From positions 32,001-96,000 of the forward strand of contig JBEKVV010000004.1 in the NCBI GenBank assembly GCA_049513715.1: a stretch of 64,000 nucleotides of DNA, written 5' to 3'. Of the stretch, positions 30,001 to 36,000 are shown one piece after another. The stretch's first letter is position 1. The number at the start of each line of letters is the position of its first letter. This stretch comes from Candidatus Bathyarchaeia archaeon (GTDB lineage Archaea > Thermoproteota > Bathyarchaeia > 40CM-2-53-6). Made by a program: the position numbers.

Positions 30001-33000
30001 TGCAAGAAATCAGCGTTAGGATTCTACTCTCTTCTATTGTCTGACGGTCTCCACTTGGAGAGGGGCGACTAGATCCTAGACCTGTTCAAATGTGCAACTC
30101 AAATTCAATCGCCACGAAGAATTCGCTCACGGTAATATCCAAAGGGTCATTCAAAGCCATGTGGCTCAAGCAGGCCACAGGTGTATCTGAATTCCAGAAC
30201 GCCGGCAGGGCTATCGGAATGTTGGGACCTTATGCTTTCTGAGAGGTCTAGCGGTATTTCATCCTTGAGTGAGCAGGTAGCTCTTGATGCGCTTCTCATC
30301 TAGGTTAATAATGGCCCCGCGGAGGATTCCTTCTCCGTACTCACTTCCAGGGTTCAAGCAGAGAGTTCGCCCGATTTTCACGAACCCGCGGGATTCGTGT
30401 ATGTGTCCGTGGATGCCTATGAGCGGCTGGTGTTTCTCTATTGCCTGCCTTACTGCGAGACTGCCTACGTGAACCATGCTCACGCTGCCTCCACCACCAC
30501 TAACTTTGGGCTTGAGTGTTTCGTCCAAGTCTGGAGCTAAATCAATTGGAGTGCCGTGCGGGGGGCAATGTAGGTTGAATATGCAGTTCTCCATCCTCTC
30601 AACCTTCGAGAGCATTCGATCCAAGATTTCGGCTAATTTTTCTTCGGTAGTTTCGCGAGGGCTATGCCACGGGGTCGTGTTCGTCCACGCCGTCGTAATC
30701 ATTTCGTGGACATCGTCCACCCGGACAACTTCATCCTCCGGATAGAGAACTATCGGTGATGACTTTAGCATCTCATCGATGTCGAATCGGTCGTCGTTTC
30801 CAGGGCTGATATAACACTTCACTTTGGAGTCTTTCAATCGTTCCTCTGCTATGGTTACCCATCGTTTCACCCCTTGTGCCATGACTTTCGTGAACAGTTC
30901 ATCAACAAGCTTTTTGTCACTTTCAAGTTTCTCCATCTCTGTAGGGTCCGTGAGGTATGGATAGTAGCCACTGTTGCGAATGTTTTTCTCTAAAGCTTCC
31001 CGTTCCTGCTGAGAATGCATCACAACTTTGCTGCCAACGAAATCCGAGGTGAATGAGCCGTCCCGCTGCTCGACTATCGGAACGATCATCTTCCCGGTAA
31101 TGTCGCCCCCAAGAATGATAGCATCCGGCTGATAGTATTTGGCCGCATTCAGAAACTTGAGGAAACAAACCTCAGAGCCGTGAACATCTGAAGTAAAGAA
31201 GAGGCGAGTGTTAGACATAGGCTCGCCTACAAGATTGAGACATTAATATTTTGACCTTGGTTATCTGTTGCTGGCGGGATGGAACCGAGAGGTAACCAAT
31301 AAGTACGTGACCCATGAAACTACGCATTCATCGAGTCGCTTGGAAATGTTGTCGTCATTGAGGAGAAATTCTTGAAGCGCTTGCCTCTATTTTTCGTTCG
31401 ACCCGCATGCGATTGAGAGTAAATGTGTGTGCGCGATGACAGTATCTGAGAATCACCCACTCGAAGACGCTGGTAAGGAGGCTCTGAGAGTGATTCATGC
31501 GGCTGAGGCGAAGGGCGTACAACTACGACTCCTTGGAGGGTTAGCGATTAAGCTGCGCTGCGAAAGATCGGACGATCGCACTCTAAGTCGAAATTACGCT
31601 GATATCGACTTAGTGGGATATTCGAAGCAACGCAGGAACATCGTACGATTGTTTCCCGAAATCGGTTACAGCCCTCGAGACGTGTTCAACAAACTCCAAG
31701 CAGACCGATTGATCTTCCAAGACCTTGAACACAGAAGGCGGATTGATGTGTTCTTGGATCATATGAAGATGTGCCACAAGCTTGACTTCAAAGGCAGGCT
31801 GCACCTTCATCCAGTAACGATTCCACTGGCCGATCTATTGATGACCAAACTCCAGGTCGTCGAGACAACTGAGCGCGAAATCAAAGACACGATCACGTTG
31901 CTCATCGATCATCCTGTGGGAGAGATAGACGATGGTGATGTCATTAACGGGCGTTATATAGCCCAGGCTTGTGCGAACGATTGGGGAATCTTCAAGACAT
32001 TTACGACGAACATGGAGAAACTCCGGCAGTTTCTGCCCACATACTTGCCCACTAAGGAAGATTCCGACAAAGTTCGAGAGAGATTAGACAAGCTCCGTCA
32101 AATGATTGATGAAGCTCCGAAGAGTAGCAGATGGAAACTGAGGGCTATGGTTGGCGAGAAGAAAACGTGGTACGAGTTACCGGAAGCTGACCGCTCAATC
32201 GTTGAGTCACGGTTTGGGACAGGGCAGAATAGTTCGTCACAAGCATAGCGATACGGAGACATCTGAAACACCTGAAGACACTTTCTCATTTTCAACCATC
32301 TTGCGCTGCTCGCTACTCCAAAGAATGAATCTACAATCAATAGATCGGCGCGAAAATCATTCTTGAACAAAGTCATGAGACTCCATATATACGAAGGTTT
32401 TATATCGCGAACGGAGCGAAAACGACAAAGCTGCGAGAGGACGTAGCTTGACAAAAGCTCCCGGAGCCAAGTTATTTGTTCGTGAAGCCACTGGACTAGT
32501 TAGACAACTATCGTCGTTTGACGTATTCGTTTGGAGCATAATTTACTTCCCGTGGCTTACCAGTTGGGCAGGCATTTTCTGGGTTACGCCGAGCTACTAT
32601 CAGAACGTGAACTACTATGCAGCGTTGGCTCTCTGGGCTGTCGTGGCAATGGTCATCGTCCTTCTTTACTGGCAGGTTACTGTCGTGATGCCGAGAGCCG
32701 GAGGAGACTACATATTCATTTCACGATCCACGACTGGCATACTCGGTTTTGTCGCAAGTTTTCTATTCCTGATGGGGGTAGTGGCCTCAGCGGGCGGCGG
32801 TTCCTACTGGGCCTTCGCAGAAACCGGAACTCAACTGTCTTTTGCCGGGCAAGTCTTGAATGACCCAAGCATAACAGCATTGGGCACACTGATTACGCCC
32901 TTCACAACAGACAACCCAACATTGCTGTTCGGGATTGGCTTGGTCCTGATGATAGTTGGTGGTATAGCAATCGCCCTGGGAGGAAAGGTCTTCAGAATGA

Positions 33001-36000
33001 TCGTCTACTCCTTCTTCGCATATGGACTCCTTGTACTAGGATTCTCAGTTGTTGTATTCCTGACACACTCTCCAGCGAATTTCGCCGCAGCGTACGCCCA
33101 ATATTTCCAAGGAGGCGTTCCCAAAGTATTCTCTGACGCAGCAGCGAAAGGGTATACTCCAGGTACATCGCTTCTCGCTTTGGGCGCTCTCGTGCCAGTT
33201 CTCTTCGTAAGCATCGGGCCATATCCAGTTATGCAGATGGTTGGGGGTGAGGTGAAGAATCCTCGACGCTCTCTTCTCTACGGCTTGGTTCTCGCTGAAG
33301 TTGTGTCGATTCTGGTCTGGTTCGGGTTAACGTACTTGTTTGACAGCGTGGTTGGAATCAGCTTCCTTGAAGCGTGGACGTTAACAGCAGGCGGAGGATT
33401 TTCTACAGTCCCAACAGTCTTCGTCACCTTATTCTATCCAAGCGTTGCAGTGTTGTGGTTCTTATGTATCGGCCTCTTTATCGGAAACATAGGTTGGTCA
33501 TGGCTTGGATTAGTTTTCATGAGTAGGCTCGTGATGTCTTGGTCATTTGACCGTGTGTTCCCATCTGCATTTGCCAATGTCAACGAAAGATTTCATACGC
33601 CACATGTCGCGATCGCGTTGGCATGCATTCTGGCCACCTGCTCAATGTATCTGATTTACTTCACATCTTTCATCACTGCGCAGGTTAACGGAATATTCCT
33701 CTTCTCAATTGTGTGGTTAGTGACCGCCATAAGTGCCATAATCCTACCGTTCCGAAGAAAGAGCTTGTTCGAGTCTTCGGCTGGCCGGTCGAAAATAGGT
33801 GGAGTTCCGGTTATTTCTCTGCTAGGCTTGGTGGGCGCAATCCTGTTCGCCTGGTTAGCATACAACGCGACAACAAACCCTGCTATAGGATCCTTAGCTC
33901 CAAGCGCTCAGCTCTTCGTTGCGGTATTAGTTATTGTTCCAGTAGTAATCTTCGCTGCCTCCTATTACTACAACAAGTCCCGCGGAATAGATCTCAGATT
34001 AGTCGCAGGCGAACTCCCACCCGACTGAGGTCCAGGAACGGCAAGTCACGCCTGCGATTCGAGCAGCGTTTGGAATAGCGGAAGCTTGGCTCGCATTCAT
34101 CCCTGTTTCACTTGACTGAAAGATCATGGCGGCTTGATGAGTCGCCCAGGGCCTAAACAAGTACTTAGGACACTGGAAAGCGTGCTCGCTTGTGAAGGCT
34201 TCACAGTTACAAAGAGACGAACGAGGATGAGAGCTTCGAGTTGCTGGACCCTGTTCGAAAGCAACATCAGACCAGAAAATCAGAAACAGTCATACTAGCG
34301 CATCTGGGTCGGTTATTCGAAATCGGGGCAAGTGCAAAACATGTTTACTTATATCAGATGGGACGCGGCTTTCATGAAGCGCATCAGGGTTGGATGAGAC
34401 TCCTCGGTGAGTTCTGCGACTCTCATCAGTTTGACGGCGTCGACGATCGATCCATTTATGGTGTATGCGCCAGAAGAGAAACCCTGGTCGAATTTCATTC
34501 TGCCTGTCATGACTTGGAAAAACTTCCCAGAGTCGGAGGTGAACACGAGATCTGGATTGTGGGTTTTACCAGCTCGACACGTAAAGTGGCCATCGACGAT
34601 CTCGATGAAAAATGGATCTTCTCCAGATAGTAGGAACTGGATCTTTCTGTCCCAGCCAATCAATATTGGCTTCACACTAGGGGTTCTATTTGTCATCCAA
34701 TTCAGGAAACGGAACGCCATTCCACATTTGCCGATCATCGACGGTTCGTTCTCAATGATGATGTGTTAGCTTACAAGTGTTTCCGGTCGTCAGTTATCCA
34801 GCGTATATAAAATACGTATGAAAGAATAATACGTGTGTGGTGTAGACTTCCGCGCGATTTCCTTGTATAAATGCTCATTATGTCAGAAAGAAATCCGTGA
34901 AGGGCAACGTCCTGACTACTCGCCCATAAGAGGAATGGTGCACTATGCATGTCATGTTGGCCTCATAAAGAGTGAAGTACCAACTACAACAGCAAACGAA
35001 ATCTCTAATGTGCCTTGGCTTGAATCACTGAATAAGATCGTGGGACCAGAAAATGTGAAGACCCTTTACTTGGAGCGAGCGTATTATTTCCGGGATCACT
35101 CCACAGATTTTATCGACCTCGCACATGGCCATGTGCCTGATGCTGTGGTACTCCCTACTAACGAAGATGAAGTGTCCCAGTTGGTGGCCTTTGCAGCCAA
35201 AGAAAAGATCGCGATAATTCCGAGAGGGTCGGGAACCGGGTTTATGGGGGGTTCTGTAGCCGTCGGCGGTGGAATAGTTGTGGACCTAACCGGAATGAGC
35301 AGGATTATCGAAATCGACGAACACAATTACCGTGTCACAGCCGAATCCGGAGCGAATATGCAAGCCGTCGAACACGAACTCAACAAGAAAGGTTTGACTC
35401 TTGGCTTTGACCCTGGAAGCATGCCAGCTGTGTCGATAGGCGGCTCTGTCTCCACAGATCAGATTGGTGGGGATGGTTGGTACAGCAATGTGGGGTCAAT
35501 GAGACACAGGGTCATGTGTCTGAGAGTGGTTCTACCCGATGGTGGTGTTGTCAGTACAGGGCGGATGGTAGATCGCTCCTCCTCGACGGTAAATCTAACC
35601 CAACTCTTCCTTGGTGCGGAGGGAGCATTCGGAATCGTTTCTCAAGTCACTCTTAGAGTCTTTCCTCTGCCGGAAACGACTGATTTGCGGGTCGTGGTTT
35701 TTGATAGTTTCCGGCAAGCCGCCGGTGCTACCATGGAAATGATGCGTGTTGGGGTTTGGCCTCCTATACATCATACCGTTGAGGTCGTGAGGCCCGACGA
35801 GTCATCTGACAATAATGTGGTGAACTCCTTCGGAATGCTTGTTCTTGGTTTCGCTGGGTCGAAGGAGGTTGTGGCTGCACAAAGGGAAAGAACGCTATCG
35901 ATATGTGTGTCAAACGGCGGAGTGGACGCGGGTAAGCAAGCAGCGAACGATTACTGGGAACGTCATCATGAAGCTTACCCGGCCAATCTTCCCGGTAACA

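Follow-up and report, generated by a model that had tools for sequence, protein, structure and literature searches.

Three neighbouring genes were identified in a window of 64,000 nucleotides (nt) from Candidatus Bathyarchaeia archaeon, which represents the whole stretch analysed (GCA_049513715.1, JBEKVV010000004.1, positions 32,001-96,000 of the forward strand). Gene A encodes a metallophosphoesterase, gene B a Pol-beta nucleotidyltransferase and gene P (or P-type) a divergent APC permease; their open reading frames (ORFs) were found at 30259-34028 of the window, where the genome-wide survey's note had placed such a triad (Table 1). Translation of B likely starts at the ATG at 31436, and the Atlas record of this protein begins at residue 4. 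The stretch between A and B was presumed from its AT-rich, TATA-like stretches to serve as a pair of promoters; an Rfam search of 29500-35000 returned zero matches.

Table 1. Features of the A-B-P cassette and its surroundings (window positions)
Feature	Position	Strand	Basis or remark
A, calcineurin-like metallophosphoesterase (COG2129 / aq_1956 type), 319 aa	30259..31218	-	ORF, Pfam, structure match
A-B divergent intergenic region, presumed promoter pair	31219..31435	.	AT-rich, TATA-like stretches (sequence reading)
B, Pol-beta-fold nucleotidyltransferase, MenT/ANT(2'')/LnuA structural group, 273 aa	31427..32248	+	ORF, weak NTP_transf_5 match, fold
P, P-type APC-superfamily permease, 526 aa, ~12 TM segments	32448..34028	+	ORF, hydropathy, HMM
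P N-terminal motif F10-V-R12-E-A-T15-G16-L17-V-R19	32475..32504	+	Directly before TM1; candidate modification/gating site
P C-terminal tail G513-IDLRLVAG-E522-L-P524-P525-D526-COOH	33984..34025	+	Subfamily hallmark; candidate docking site
FAD-linked oxidase, probable cargo of this cassette	34833-36380	+	Pfam; membership inferred from position only
Amidohydro_2 enzyme, probable cargo of this cassette	36518-37261	+	Pfam; membership inferred from position only
PALP enzyme	37396-38388	opposite to cargo genes	Pfam

When the whole genome was searched with tblastn and HMMs, 13 A genes and 11 B loci were counted, reproducing the paralogue numbers of the earlier survey. One B locus (C4:101253-102034) was interrupted by a frameshift, and one of the 11 was a fusion with a peroxiredoxin. 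The P-HMM detected 15 P-type ORFs at 300 bits or more, consisting of 13 full-length copies adjoining A, one full-length orphan and one truncated copy (350 aa), with an additional fragment of 173 aa beyond these; generic APC permeases elsewhere in this genome scored at most 71 bits, compared with 582 bits for the window P. Although the assembly carries a contamination flag of 8.79%, the paralogues are only 42-73% identical, which excludes strain duplicates. The nearest P-type gene was found 40-2364 nt from A in all 13 cases, against a background of 2.8% of 1723 other ORFs (≥200 aa) with a P-type gene within 2.5 kb (naive p 8e-21), while a stand-alone B was located 11-1799 nt from 7 of the 13 A genes (p 6e-10); conversely, 13 of the 15 P-type ORFs and 8 of the 11 B loci had an A within 2.5 kb. 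The survey's reading that A lies mostly near an APC permease (13/13 within 2.4 kb) and about half the time beside B (7/13 within 1.8 kb) was thus borne out, with six of the 13 cassettes having no stand-alone B of their own. The Pfam neighbours likewise agreed with a different catabolic enzyme in each cassette, the cargo including class-III aminotransferase plus aldehyde dehydrogenase, M20 peptidases, amidohydrolases, adenine deaminase, creatinase/M24, creatininase, arginase-family, GGT and GS-like proteins.

We also investigated the distribution of the three genes in other genomes. In a first sample of 80 loci from archaea and bacteria of many phyla, P was detected within 3 kb of A at 64 loci, B at 52, both at 44 and neither at 8; a second set of 77 loci, which overlapped the first, gave 61, 59, 51 and 8, respectively. 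A was present in 55 of 301 Thermoproteota genomes, exactly those that also had P-type permeases, and 52 of the 55 carried B as well; one further genome carried only a B pseudogene. Among 251 Actinomycetota genomes, all three genes were found in 29, another lacked P and had its A frameshifted and its B truncated, and in one P and B lay at the edge of a contig (the tallies for the two phyla take in the unpublished genomes G326 and G428). In five of five cases where A had no neighbouring P, the genome still held P-type permeases. The P-type subfamily itself, with about 15 copies in this genome, extends to hundreds of other organisms, both archaeal and bacterial, and the unit was just as much a feature of Actinomycetota, Chloroflexota and other bacteria, so that its earlier description as a new archaeal way did not hold; our literature searches did not find a description of the A-B-P unit. 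Across 169 loci, A (144), P (123) and B (89) were by far the commonest protein clusters, the next reaching 18, and a fourth conserved gene was not found. B-A fusions were detected (P0005 and P0008), as was one A-P fusion (P0007), in which A is joined directly before the P N-terminal motif. The adjacency of the genes, their almost complete phyletic match within two phyla and these fusions support the conclusion that A, B and P work as a single functional unit linked to the permease, and the data similarly support a portable uptake cassette that is plugged into varied nitrogen-compound catabolic operons.

The window P matched TIGR00909 at E 1e-6 and had zero Pfam hits, whereas the other 12 P paralogues do have hits. 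A profile of 73 P-type sequences was found to match the ~12-TM cationic amino acid transporters of the GkApcT/SLC7 type (GkApcT 5oqt, E 1.1e-24; CAT1, E 3e-24). Unlike this genome's generic APC permeases, P-type proteins have an F-x-R-x-A-[S/T]-G-L-V-R N-terminus and an E-I-P-P-E-COOH end, both predicted to be cytoplasmic; they are a distinct APC subfamily, new in this analysis. Of the 73 sequences, R12 and G16 were each conserved in 72 and L17 in 70, with position 15 being Ser in 42 and Thr in 29. The C-terminus, typically ..FKEIPPE-COOH, conformed to ..E-[ILV]-P-[PVE]-x in 73/73 aligned proteins and in 58/58 of a further sample (51 strictly, the other 7 ending with PI/PS/PK variants), and dispersed P copies in other genomes had the same ending. 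Only 18 of the 6385 ORFs in this genome matched the tail pattern, and 15 of these were P-type.

The metal-ligand motifs of A (D11-x-H13, G38-D39, G140-N141-D142-D143, H217 and G271-H272-x-H274) were invariant in all 13 paralogues, and the ligands were invariant or at least 90% conserved across 93 homologues. The survey had described the A and B families as being without Pfam rows, which was only roughly right: the window A passes PF00149 (Metallophos) at 24.5 bits (cut-off 21.5). The structure model of A (pLDDT 97.1) again had 2yvt as its closest solved structure (E 1.7e-13, TMq 0.60, TMt 0.74), followed by 1uf3 (E 1.3e-9). These two proteins, aq_1956 and TT1561, are uncharacterised COG2129-type phosphoesterases that have the metal-ligand motifs in common with A, G-N-D-D included, but are only 12-17% identical to it. 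With 319 aa against chains of 225-257 aa, A exceeds them by 60-90 residues, and it differs in carrying a cap insert at about residues 45-127, with entropy peaking at 61-120, and a family motif, N-x-T-P-W-x-x-P-R-E. Instead of protein phosphatases, its nearest folds were nucleases, nucleotidases and cNMP phosphodiesterases, along with uncharacterised enzymes.

For B, the window protein matched Pfam PF14907 at E 0.044 only, a family reached at E≤0.1 by 26 of 49 B family members. The motif reported earlier, GG..A...DID, was confirmed in the conserved residues G37, A40 and D59-x-D61, joined by D107; the invariant residues were D59, D61, D107, H117 and K141, and an extra C-terminal helical domain of ~100 residues had its own invariant W186, G187, K232, R239 and G243. 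The model (pLDDT 92.1) recovered the same nearest folds as before, namely MenT1 (8an4; Z 12.5, rmsd 3.5 over 169 residues), ANT(2'')-Ia (Z 12.2 over 154 residues), LnuA (Z 10.2 over 136 residues) and JHP933. CD-NTase matches were weak (Z 5.6-6.2), and none of the fold matches listed was a GlnD-, GlnE- or DrrA-type protein modifier. MenT1 acts on tRNA 3' ends, while ANT(2'')-Ia and LnuA act on small-molecule hydroxyls. The latter two share the G-x-A ... D-x-D catalytic layout with B, and the profile yields a weak match of N-terminal sequence to this group (E 0.9), but B is distinguished by its C-terminal helical domain and the absence of a resistance context. B-like domains were also found away from permeases, fused to Fic and an HTH (wHTH) domain, and 70 of 72 such loci had no A or P within 8 kb. 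The peroxiredoxin-B fusion was conserved across 51 protein clusters and resembles a sensor domain attached to an output enzyme.

The MenT likeness raises the possibility that B extends tRNA or RNA ends and A trims them, in a system for translation-uptake coupling, addiction or defence. Matches to TglT/MenT3 (Z 9.2) and MenT4 (Z 8.6) as well as MenT1, the resemblance of A to Mre11/SbcD nucleases and the Fic and wHTH fusions, which are reminiscent of toxin-antitoxin systems, are consistent with this. We nonetheless regard it as very improbable: B is 10-15% identical to the MenT/AbiEii toxins, Pfam AbiEii was touched by only 1 of 49 B proteins (E 0.018), an antitoxin-like gene was absent from the scanned cassettes, where B sits instead in catabolic operons together with A and P, and PADLOC matched neither B nor P, with A reaching no more than a weak PDC-S10 hit. 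Furthermore, the co-occurrence with one permease subfamily and the hallmark termini of P would be left unexplained.

Sequence conservation, co-folding and co-variation were then considered for their bearing on the target of A and B. Mean column entropy was lowest for A (1.79 bits), intermediate for B (2.07) and highest for P (2.52), making A the most and P the least conserved partner. P was least variable at residues 1-20, 81-100, 361-380 and 521-526, stretches that probably face the cytoplasm according to its 12-TM hydropathy profile, and the paralogue trees were partly incongruent, with the A proteins of cassettes 1, 3 and 5 forming one clade and their P proteins not. Based on these three observations, the target of A and B is more likely constant than variable. 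Co-folding of P with A scored 0.35 (runs 0.35, 0.24 and 0.37; best of three controls 0.00; contact agreement at least 44%, partner pLDDT at least 84). The mark used is reached by 116/157 solved complexes and 2/215 mismatched pairs, but at ≤0.60 by only 18/157 complexes and both mismatches. According to the tool, a pass in this weak class proves false more often than true for pairings that were not already probable, and the result lends weak support to physical contact between A and P. Co-variation of the last P tail residue with A residue 24 was not significant.

Our preferred reading, to which we assign a probability of roughly 35%, is that the permease itself is the target of both enzymes, with B writing a nucleotidyl mark and A erasing it. 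Alternatively, B may O-nucleotidylylate the imported compound or a derivative, with A cleaving the phosphodiester, such that the pair traps, activates or detoxifies what P imports. This account, which we consider unlikely, would suit the small-molecule O-nucleotidyltransferases in the fold group of B, the location of cassettes in catabolic operons, the variable cap insert of A and an A:P ratio near 1:1 in this genome, a ratio that fits substrate-specific enzymes and so counts against a permease target. However, the cargo implies unrelated substrates (amines, purines, creatinine-like/guanidino compounds and quaternary amines), several without a hydroxyl, and the account does not explain the invariant cytoplasmic P termini. 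In five complete genomes, usually a single B (1, 1, 2, 1 and 1) and one to four A genes (1, 2, 4, 3 and 1) coexisted with two to seven P genes (4, 6, 5, 7 and 2), so that one B would serve up to seven P and three A. These copy numbers, together with the far greater conservation of A than of P and the cytoplasmic position of the conserved P parts, favour the permease over imported compounds as the target. The linkage and phyletic data, the hallmark P termini, the B-A and A-P fusions, the lack of a fourth gene in the unit and the sensor-like peroxiredoxin-B fusion were likewise counted for this reading.

That complete genomes can combine one A and one B with several scattered P genes would also suit a non-covalent signal, in which B makes and A degrades a nucleotide-derived ligand that gates P through its conserved cytoplasmic motifs. 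c-di-AMP controls some transporters in a comparable manner, the fold neighbours of A include the cNMP phosphodiesterases Rv0805 and MPPED2, and B has its weak CD-NTase matches. We judge this to be quite improbable, since a single diffusible signal would then be common to 13 A and 11 B paralogues, leaving no selection for keeping A beside each P; the nucleotide messenger variant in the survey's note likewise sits poorly with a cell that has 13 cassettes in parallel. The A-P fusion and tight operon coupling point to permease proximity instead, and P has no recognisable ligand-binding domain beyond its short terminal motifs. Of the note's proposal that a writer/eraser pair gates the permease, the three-gene unit tied to P stands, but the nearest folds of B are tRNA-end and small-molecule enzymes rather than GlnD/GlnE-type. 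Against permease modification there are also the fold neighbours of A, the cassettes without their own stand-alone B and the B-like domains remote from permeases.

Under permease modification by A and B, P would be a secondary transporter whose variable membrane core sets the substrate, among various nitrogen-rich small compounds, and whose conserved cytoplasmic termini provide a handle for two dedicated soluble enzymes. B would move a nucleoside monophosphate from an NTP to a permease hydroxyl, the likeliest residue being the conserved Ser/Thr15 of the N-terminal motif, next to the cytoplasmic gate. A would act as a binuclear-metal phosphodiesterase that takes the mark off, with the ..E-I-P-P-E-COOH tail as a putative docking site. 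The cycle would, as we infer its effect, turn uptake on or off regardless of substrate.

Related cycles are known from GlnD-GlnK (PII)-AmtB and GlnE-glutamine synthetase, in which a Pol-beta-type nucleotidyltransferase and hydrolytic removal control nitrogen uptake or assimilation; there is genetic linkage to a membrane transporter, and a single protein can combine writer and eraser. Transporter linkage and writer-eraser fusion (here B-A) are common to these cycles and the A-B-P unit. The systems differ in that (i) the GlnD/GlnE eraser is an HD or second NTase domain, whereas the proposed eraser A is a calcineurin-like metallophosphoesterase; (ii) B is nearest in fold to MenT/ANT/LnuA and the transporter is an APC permease; and (iii) a PII-like gene was not found among the cassette neighbours scanned. 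In Legionella, DrrA(SidM) and SidD combine a nucleotidyltransferase-fold writer with a metal-dependent phosphatase-fold eraser of the protein-O-AMP phosphodiester. No match to SidD in sequence or fold came up, nor was one looked for. Though SidD has a PPM fold, unlike calcineurin-like A, and its target is a host GTPase, this combination of a writer NTase with a metal-dependent eraser resembles the pairing proposed for B and A.

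The cassette in the window brings together a predicted calcineurin-like metallophosphoesterase (A), a Pol-beta-type nucleotidyltransferase (B), and a divergent permease of the APC superfamily (P). B probably starts at an internal ATG, since residue 4 is the first residue of its Atlas record.

Positions of the three cassette genes in the window
Gene	Product	Position	Strand	Type
A	metallophosphoesterase, 319 aa	30259-31218	minus	ORF
B	nucleotidyltransferase, 273 aa; likely start ATG at 31436	31427-32248	plus	ORF
P	permease, 526 aa	32448-34028	plus	ORF

Neighbors of the cassette include an FAD-linked oxidase, an Amidohydro_2 enzyme, and a PALP enzyme. 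A search of window positions 29500-35000 against Rfam gave no match at E ≤ 0.1. The region upstream (22680-30005) encodes two MoeA proteins, one fused to a PBP-like domain, together with a LysR-HTH/PBP-like regulator and an ABC importer whose binding protein is of the PBP_like_2 type. This block probably serves molybdate or tungstate uptake and cofactor function and apparently has no relation to the triad.

All five binuclear metal-ligand motifs (D-x-H, G-D, G-N-[HD]-[DE], H, and G-H-x-H) were found in A. None of the ligands D11, H13, D39, N141, H217, H272, and H274 varies among the 13 A paralogues of this genome, all of which therefore look like active enzymes as far as their sequences indicate; across 93 homologues the same seven residues are invariant or at least 90% conserved. 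The window's A scored above the cut-off for PF00149 (Pfam Metallophos, 24.5 versus 21.5 bits) and slightly under it for PF12850 (Metallophos_2, 26.7 versus 27) and PF14582 (Metallophos_3, 24.0 versus 28.2). Its structural model (pLDDT 97.1) gave 254 PDB matches by Foldseek at E ≤ 0.001, the matches listed all being metallophosphoesterases. Closest by fold were two uncharacterised phosphoesterases, aq_1956 (2yvt; E 1.7e-13, TMq 0.60, TMt 0.74) and TT1561 (1uf3), followed by Mre11/SbcD, 5'-nucleotidases, LpxH, MPPED2, and Rv0805. Motifs, Pfam score, and modelled fold thus place A in the calcineurin-like metallophosphoesterase superfamily, with a predicted hydrolase activity. Two longer relatives of A carry insertions or additions: P0009 (692 aa) has an intein (Hom_end and LAGLIDADG Pfam domains) directly before the catalytic G-H-I-H-E motif, and P0006 (607 aa) has a C-terminal SMP-30/gluconolactonase-like domain (PF08450).

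The catalytic motif G-[GS] ... D-x-D and a third carboxylate are present in B, with G37 at least 90% conserved and D59, D61, and D107 invariant among 49 sequences. The window's B matched PF14907 (NTP_transf_5) at 13.8 bits (E 0.044), below the gathering score of 31.2 bits, and 26 of the 49 family members matched at E ≤ 0.1 (best 3.8e-9); these scores make B a distant relative of NTP_transf_5 and not a curated member. When the PDB was searched by sequence with A alone or B alone, only marginal matches were obtained. The fold of the B model (pLDDT 92.1) was most similar to MenT1 (Z 12.5, rmsd 3.5 over 169 residues), then to ANT(2'')-Ia (Z 12.2), the 5uvd protein (Z 11.7), LnuA (Z 10.2), JHP933-like 4ok0 (Z 9.6), and, further down, TglT and MenT4, in agreement with the fold neighbors that the genome-wide survey's note had named (MenT1, ANT(2'')-Ia, LnuA, and JHP933). 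GlnD and GlnE structures were absent among the fold matches listed, and MenT, ANT, and LnuA enzymes are the closest relatives by fold. A MenT-like role on RNA ends or in a toxin-antitoxin pair would fit this resemblance, yet neither a MenA antitoxin nor an AbiEi winged-helix protein was found beside B, which instead neighbors A, P, and catabolic enzymes with no recurrent fourth gene; we consider such a role very unlikely. A defense system was rejected, as PADLOC returned no hit for B, P, or the peroxiredoxin-B fusion, and for A only a weak PDC-S10 match at the G-H-x-H region.

The B domain also occurs fused to domains from outside the triad. At C2:9320-10630 (L007:9320-10630) a 436-aa protein combines an AhpC/TSA peroxiredoxin, in frame, with a complete B-type domain that retains the catalytic G-G and D-I-D; its gene lies 1.9 kb upstream of cassette 8. 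The same layout is shared by 51 protein clusters of about 408-530 aa (coverage ≥ 92%), one member of which is named by one source as Bathyarchaeia. Another fusion, of about 690 aa (P0131 and loci L187-L258), joins Fic_N, Fic, winged-helix, and B domains, is widespread in Thermoleophilia and other Actinomycetota MAGs, often in tandem copies, and aligns with the B family with 100% probability (hhalign, E 5.6e-49). It was considered as a link to protein AMPylation and dropped, because neither A nor P was found within 8 kb at 70 of the 72 loci; the fusion forms its own branch of the B family and could equally be toxin-antitoxin-like.

A profile of 73 P sequences was found to match solved APC transporters, including GkApcT (E 1.1e-24), CAT1 (E 3e-24), LATs, and AdiC, and the hydropathy of P indicates about 12 membrane segments. 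On this profile similarity and 12-TM layout, P is assigned to the APC superfamily. The window's P itself had no Pfam hit at E ≤ 1 and a weak TIGR00909 match; the other 12 P paralogues match AA_permease or AA_permease_2. The 73 aligned P-type proteins all share a C-terminal end, ..G-[IV]-D-x-x-L-x-[FY]-[KR]-E-[IL]-P-P-[ED or hydrophobic], followed by the stop codon; the last residue is acidic in 58 and hydrophobic in 15, and the end reads GIDLRLVAGELPPD in the window's P. This tail is kept (i) in 58 of 58 P-type ORFs of a second sample, with PI, PS, or PK replacing PP in 7; (ii) in the orphan and truncated P copies of this genome; and (iii) in dispersed copies of complete genomes, where A and B are far off. 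It is missing in the four ordinary APC permeases examined in this genome, where 18 of 6385 ORFs match the pattern and 15 of the 18 are P-type. The E-I-P-P-E-COOH end is a simple annotation marker that sets these permeases apart from ordinary amino-acid permeases. A second hallmark, [VL]-F-[VA]-R-x-[AS]-[ST]-G-L-V-R, precedes TM1; of the 73 sequences, 72 have R12, 72 have G16, and 70 have L17; position 15 is occupied by Ser (42 sequences) or Thr (29). Variability along P was lowest at residues 1-20, 81-100, 361-380, and 521-526 and high throughout the membrane core. The 12-segment hydropathy profile would place the four least variable stretches on the cytoplasmic side.

The whole assembly was surveyed by tblastn and family HMMs, with P-type defined as at least 300 bits on the P model. 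The genome was found to encode 13 A genes, 11 B loci (one frameshifted, one a peroxiredoxin fusion), and 15 P-type ORFs plus one fragment, ordinary APC permeases scoring at most 71 bits. A P-type gene lies 40-2364 nt from A in 13 of 13 cases, against a background of 2.8% of 1723 other long ORFs; conversely, an A lies within 2.5 kb of 13 of the 15 P-type genes, and the two away from any A are a full-length orphan and a truncated copy. Stand-alone B genes are found 11-1799 nt from 7 of the 13 A genes. The cargo varies by cassette and includes class-III aminotransferases with aldehyde dehydrogenases, M20 peptidases, amidohydrolases, adenine deaminases, creatinase/M24 enzymes, creatininase, an arginase-family enzyme, GGT, and a GS-like enzyme. 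The survey's count of 13 A and 11 B with permease neighbors was thereby reproduced, as was its description of a differing catabolic enzyme in each cassette (aminotransferase, amidohydrolase, peptidase, creatininase, and others). The assembly carries a contamination flag of 8.79%; strain duplicates are impossible because the A paralogues are only 42-73% identical (B 31-51%, P 20-41%). What this genome contributes is the expansion to 13 cassettes. At C2:59391-61327 (L008:8391-10327) two tandem A paralogues overlapping by 4 nt make up a double cassette together with the two P-type permeases and the creatininase gene on their flanks. About 5 kb past the window end, a B gene is broken by a frame change into two ORFs (C4:101253-102034; L012:9253-10034); it is probably a pseudogene, and no A- or P-family gene was found near it.

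A scan with the A alignment, using one genome per species, returned at least 602 pattern matches, of which at least 589 were confirmed by tblastn. The best 80 of these at least 589 loci include archaea (Bathyarchaeia, Nitrososphaerales, Thermoplasmata, and several Asgard lineages) and bacteria (Chloroflexota, including Thermomicrobium; Actinomycetota, including Microbispora; Bacillota; and Pseudomonadota), so the note's "archaeal" way does not hold. HMM searches of ORFs within 3 kb of A in these best 80 loci detected P in 64, B in 52, both in 44, and neither in 8; for the 55 with at least 3 kb on each side the numbers were 45, 43, 37, and 4, and for a second, partly overlapping sample of 77 loci they were 61, 59, 51, and 8. 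Several actinobacterial loci have the gene order P-B-A with overlaps of 4 nt. Partnerless A genes were of two kinds, B-A pairs and solo A genes beside RadA and DUF447, and all five genomes with a partnerless A hold P-type permeases elsewhere. The order RadA, DUF447, solo A was seen at L047:3725-6942 (a Jordarchaeia MAG) and L060:4190-6939 (a Thermoproteota MAG), with neither P nor B nearby. Clustering of ORFs within 4 kb of A at 169 loci recovered A in 144, P in 123, and B in 89; a fourth conserved component was rejected, as the next family occurred in only 18 of the 169.

Co-occurrence was examined by genome in two phyla, including two unpublished genomes (G326 and G428). With thresholds of E ≤ 1e-40 for A, E ≤ 1e-60 for P-type, and E ≤ 1e-20 for B, 55 of 301 Thermoproteota genomes were found to have A, the identical 55 to have P-type permeases, and 52 of the 55 to have B; the three without B are incomplete MAGs. 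One extra genome has a B with an in-frame stop, and A and P were not found there. All three genes were detected in 29 of 251 Actinomycetota genomes. The exceptions were one genome with P and B at a contig start and another, G462, in which a frameshifted A adjoins a truncated B (C8:1051288-1052837) and no P-type permease was found; the latter looks like enzyme decay after permease loss. These counts carry no p-value because kin are not independent; the same pattern of A, B, and P nevertheless recurs strongly in two phyla of different domains. Cultured carriers include Mycolicibacterium stellerae (a single-copy A-P-B operon), Nonomuraea, Microbispora, Thermomicrobium, and Vulcanisaeta.

The relationship between the enzymes and the permease was further examined by conservation, copy number, fusion, and co-folding. 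Mean column entropy was 1.79 bits for A, 2.07 for B, and 2.52 for P. With all candidates scored, five complete genomes hold 4, 6, 5, 7, and 2 copies of P, respectively, with 1, 2, 4, 3, and 1 of A and 1, 1, 2, 1, and 1 of B; evidently a single B and few A genes can serve several permeases. Pairwise identities within this genome were compared by Mantel test between A and P (r 0.52, reached by 7 of 5000 shuffles), between A and B (r 0.34, 345 of 5000), and between P and B (r 0.14, 1280 of 5000). Strict co-evolution of A with its own P was rejected despite the r of 0.52: a fully supported clade unites the A genes of cassettes 1, 3, and 5, the P of cassette 3 clusters with the cassette 11 copy, and this partial incongruence of the trees indicates that partners have been reshuffled. 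Co-variation of the P tail with A was not significant, the best A column against the last tail residue (residue 24; MI 0.40 of 0.73) having been chosen post hoc from 319 columns, with 4 (A tree) and 6 (P tree) independent pairs giving median p values of 0.25 and 0.125. Longer A relatives include the B-A fusions P0005 (581 aa) and P0008 (596 aa), as well as P0007, a single record cut at its C-end, in which A is fused to the N-terminus of P immediately before an F-L-R-N-A-T-G-L-V-K motif. Co-folding of full-length P with A scored 0.35 (runs 0.35, 0.24, and 0.37; best of three controls 0.00), with at least 44% of contacts agreeing between runs and partner pLDDT of at least 84; of 157 solved complexes 116 reach the mark, but only 18 of the 157 do so at or below 0.60, where both of the mismatched pairs that reach it (2 of 215) also lie. 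The predicted A-P contact gives weak support and adds a little to a prior that the genetic evidence had already raised.

We propose, with a probability of about one in three (0.35), that the target of A and B is P itself. This reading is favored because (i) A and B keep pace with the permease family and not with the substrates; (ii) both are more conserved than P and sometimes fewer than the P genes; (iii) the conserved features of P are cytoplasmic and unconnected with substrate binding; and (iv) the cargo enzymes indicate substrates that share no chemical handle. The last point bears also on the alternative that A and B process the imported compound, for which the resemblance of B to ANT and LnuA speaks; we judge it improbable. 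In LeuT-fold transporters, the N-terminal segment is part of the cytoplasmic gate. If the enzymes act on the permease, B would transfer a nucleotidyl group to a hydroxyl, most plausibly that of Ser/Thr15 near the N-terminal conserved arginines of P, A would take the mark off, and the invariant acidic tail may be a docking site. That the nucleotide serves instead as a non-covalent ligand seems quite unlikely. The complete scheme, an archaeal and bacterial transporter subfamily switched by direct reversible nucleotidylylation on the conserved Ser/Thr of the N-terminal gate, with a MenT/ANT-like writer and a COG2129 eraser both recruited by the E-I-P-P-E-COOH tail, is itself rather unlikely and is offered tentatively.

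Overall, these results provide a joint context for three large families, the COG2129-type phosphoesterases, the NTP_transf_5-like nucleotidyltransferases, and an APC subfamily, at a scale of at least 589 loci and with almost perfect three-gene co-occurrence in two unrelated phyla. Should the enzymes act on the permease, they would form a general, substrate-independent control layer over the uptake of organic nitrogen compounds, operating in soil and sediment archaea (Bathyarchaeia, Nitrososphaerales, and Asgard) and in bacteria (Actinomycetota and Chloroflexota); should this occur by direct permease nucleotidylylation, two large families of unknown enzymes would gain a function. The hallmark termini of P offer a concrete, cheap handle for experiment.

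Full-text literature searches, judged from their result lists, turned up nothing describing the triad or the tail motif, nor what either enzyme family does. APC family permease, metallophosphoesterase, and nucleotidyltransferase were not found together, and permease with metallophosphoesterase, gene neighborhood, and archaea gave unrelated matches only. The match listed for NTP_transf_5/PF14907 concerns phosphonate biosynthesis and looks unrelated, titles and abstracts on COG2129 gave nothing on function, and KEIPPE and EIPPE occurred, among the matches listed, only by chance within other words. We know of no described case of direct nucleotidylylation of a permease, and the literature search found none. 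A P-II Pfam hit was detected neither in the 174 neighbor proteins scanned nor among the recurrent clusters. Among known systems, the nearest analogy in logic is GlnD-GlnK-AmtB; no PII was found with the triad, and its parts come from different families.
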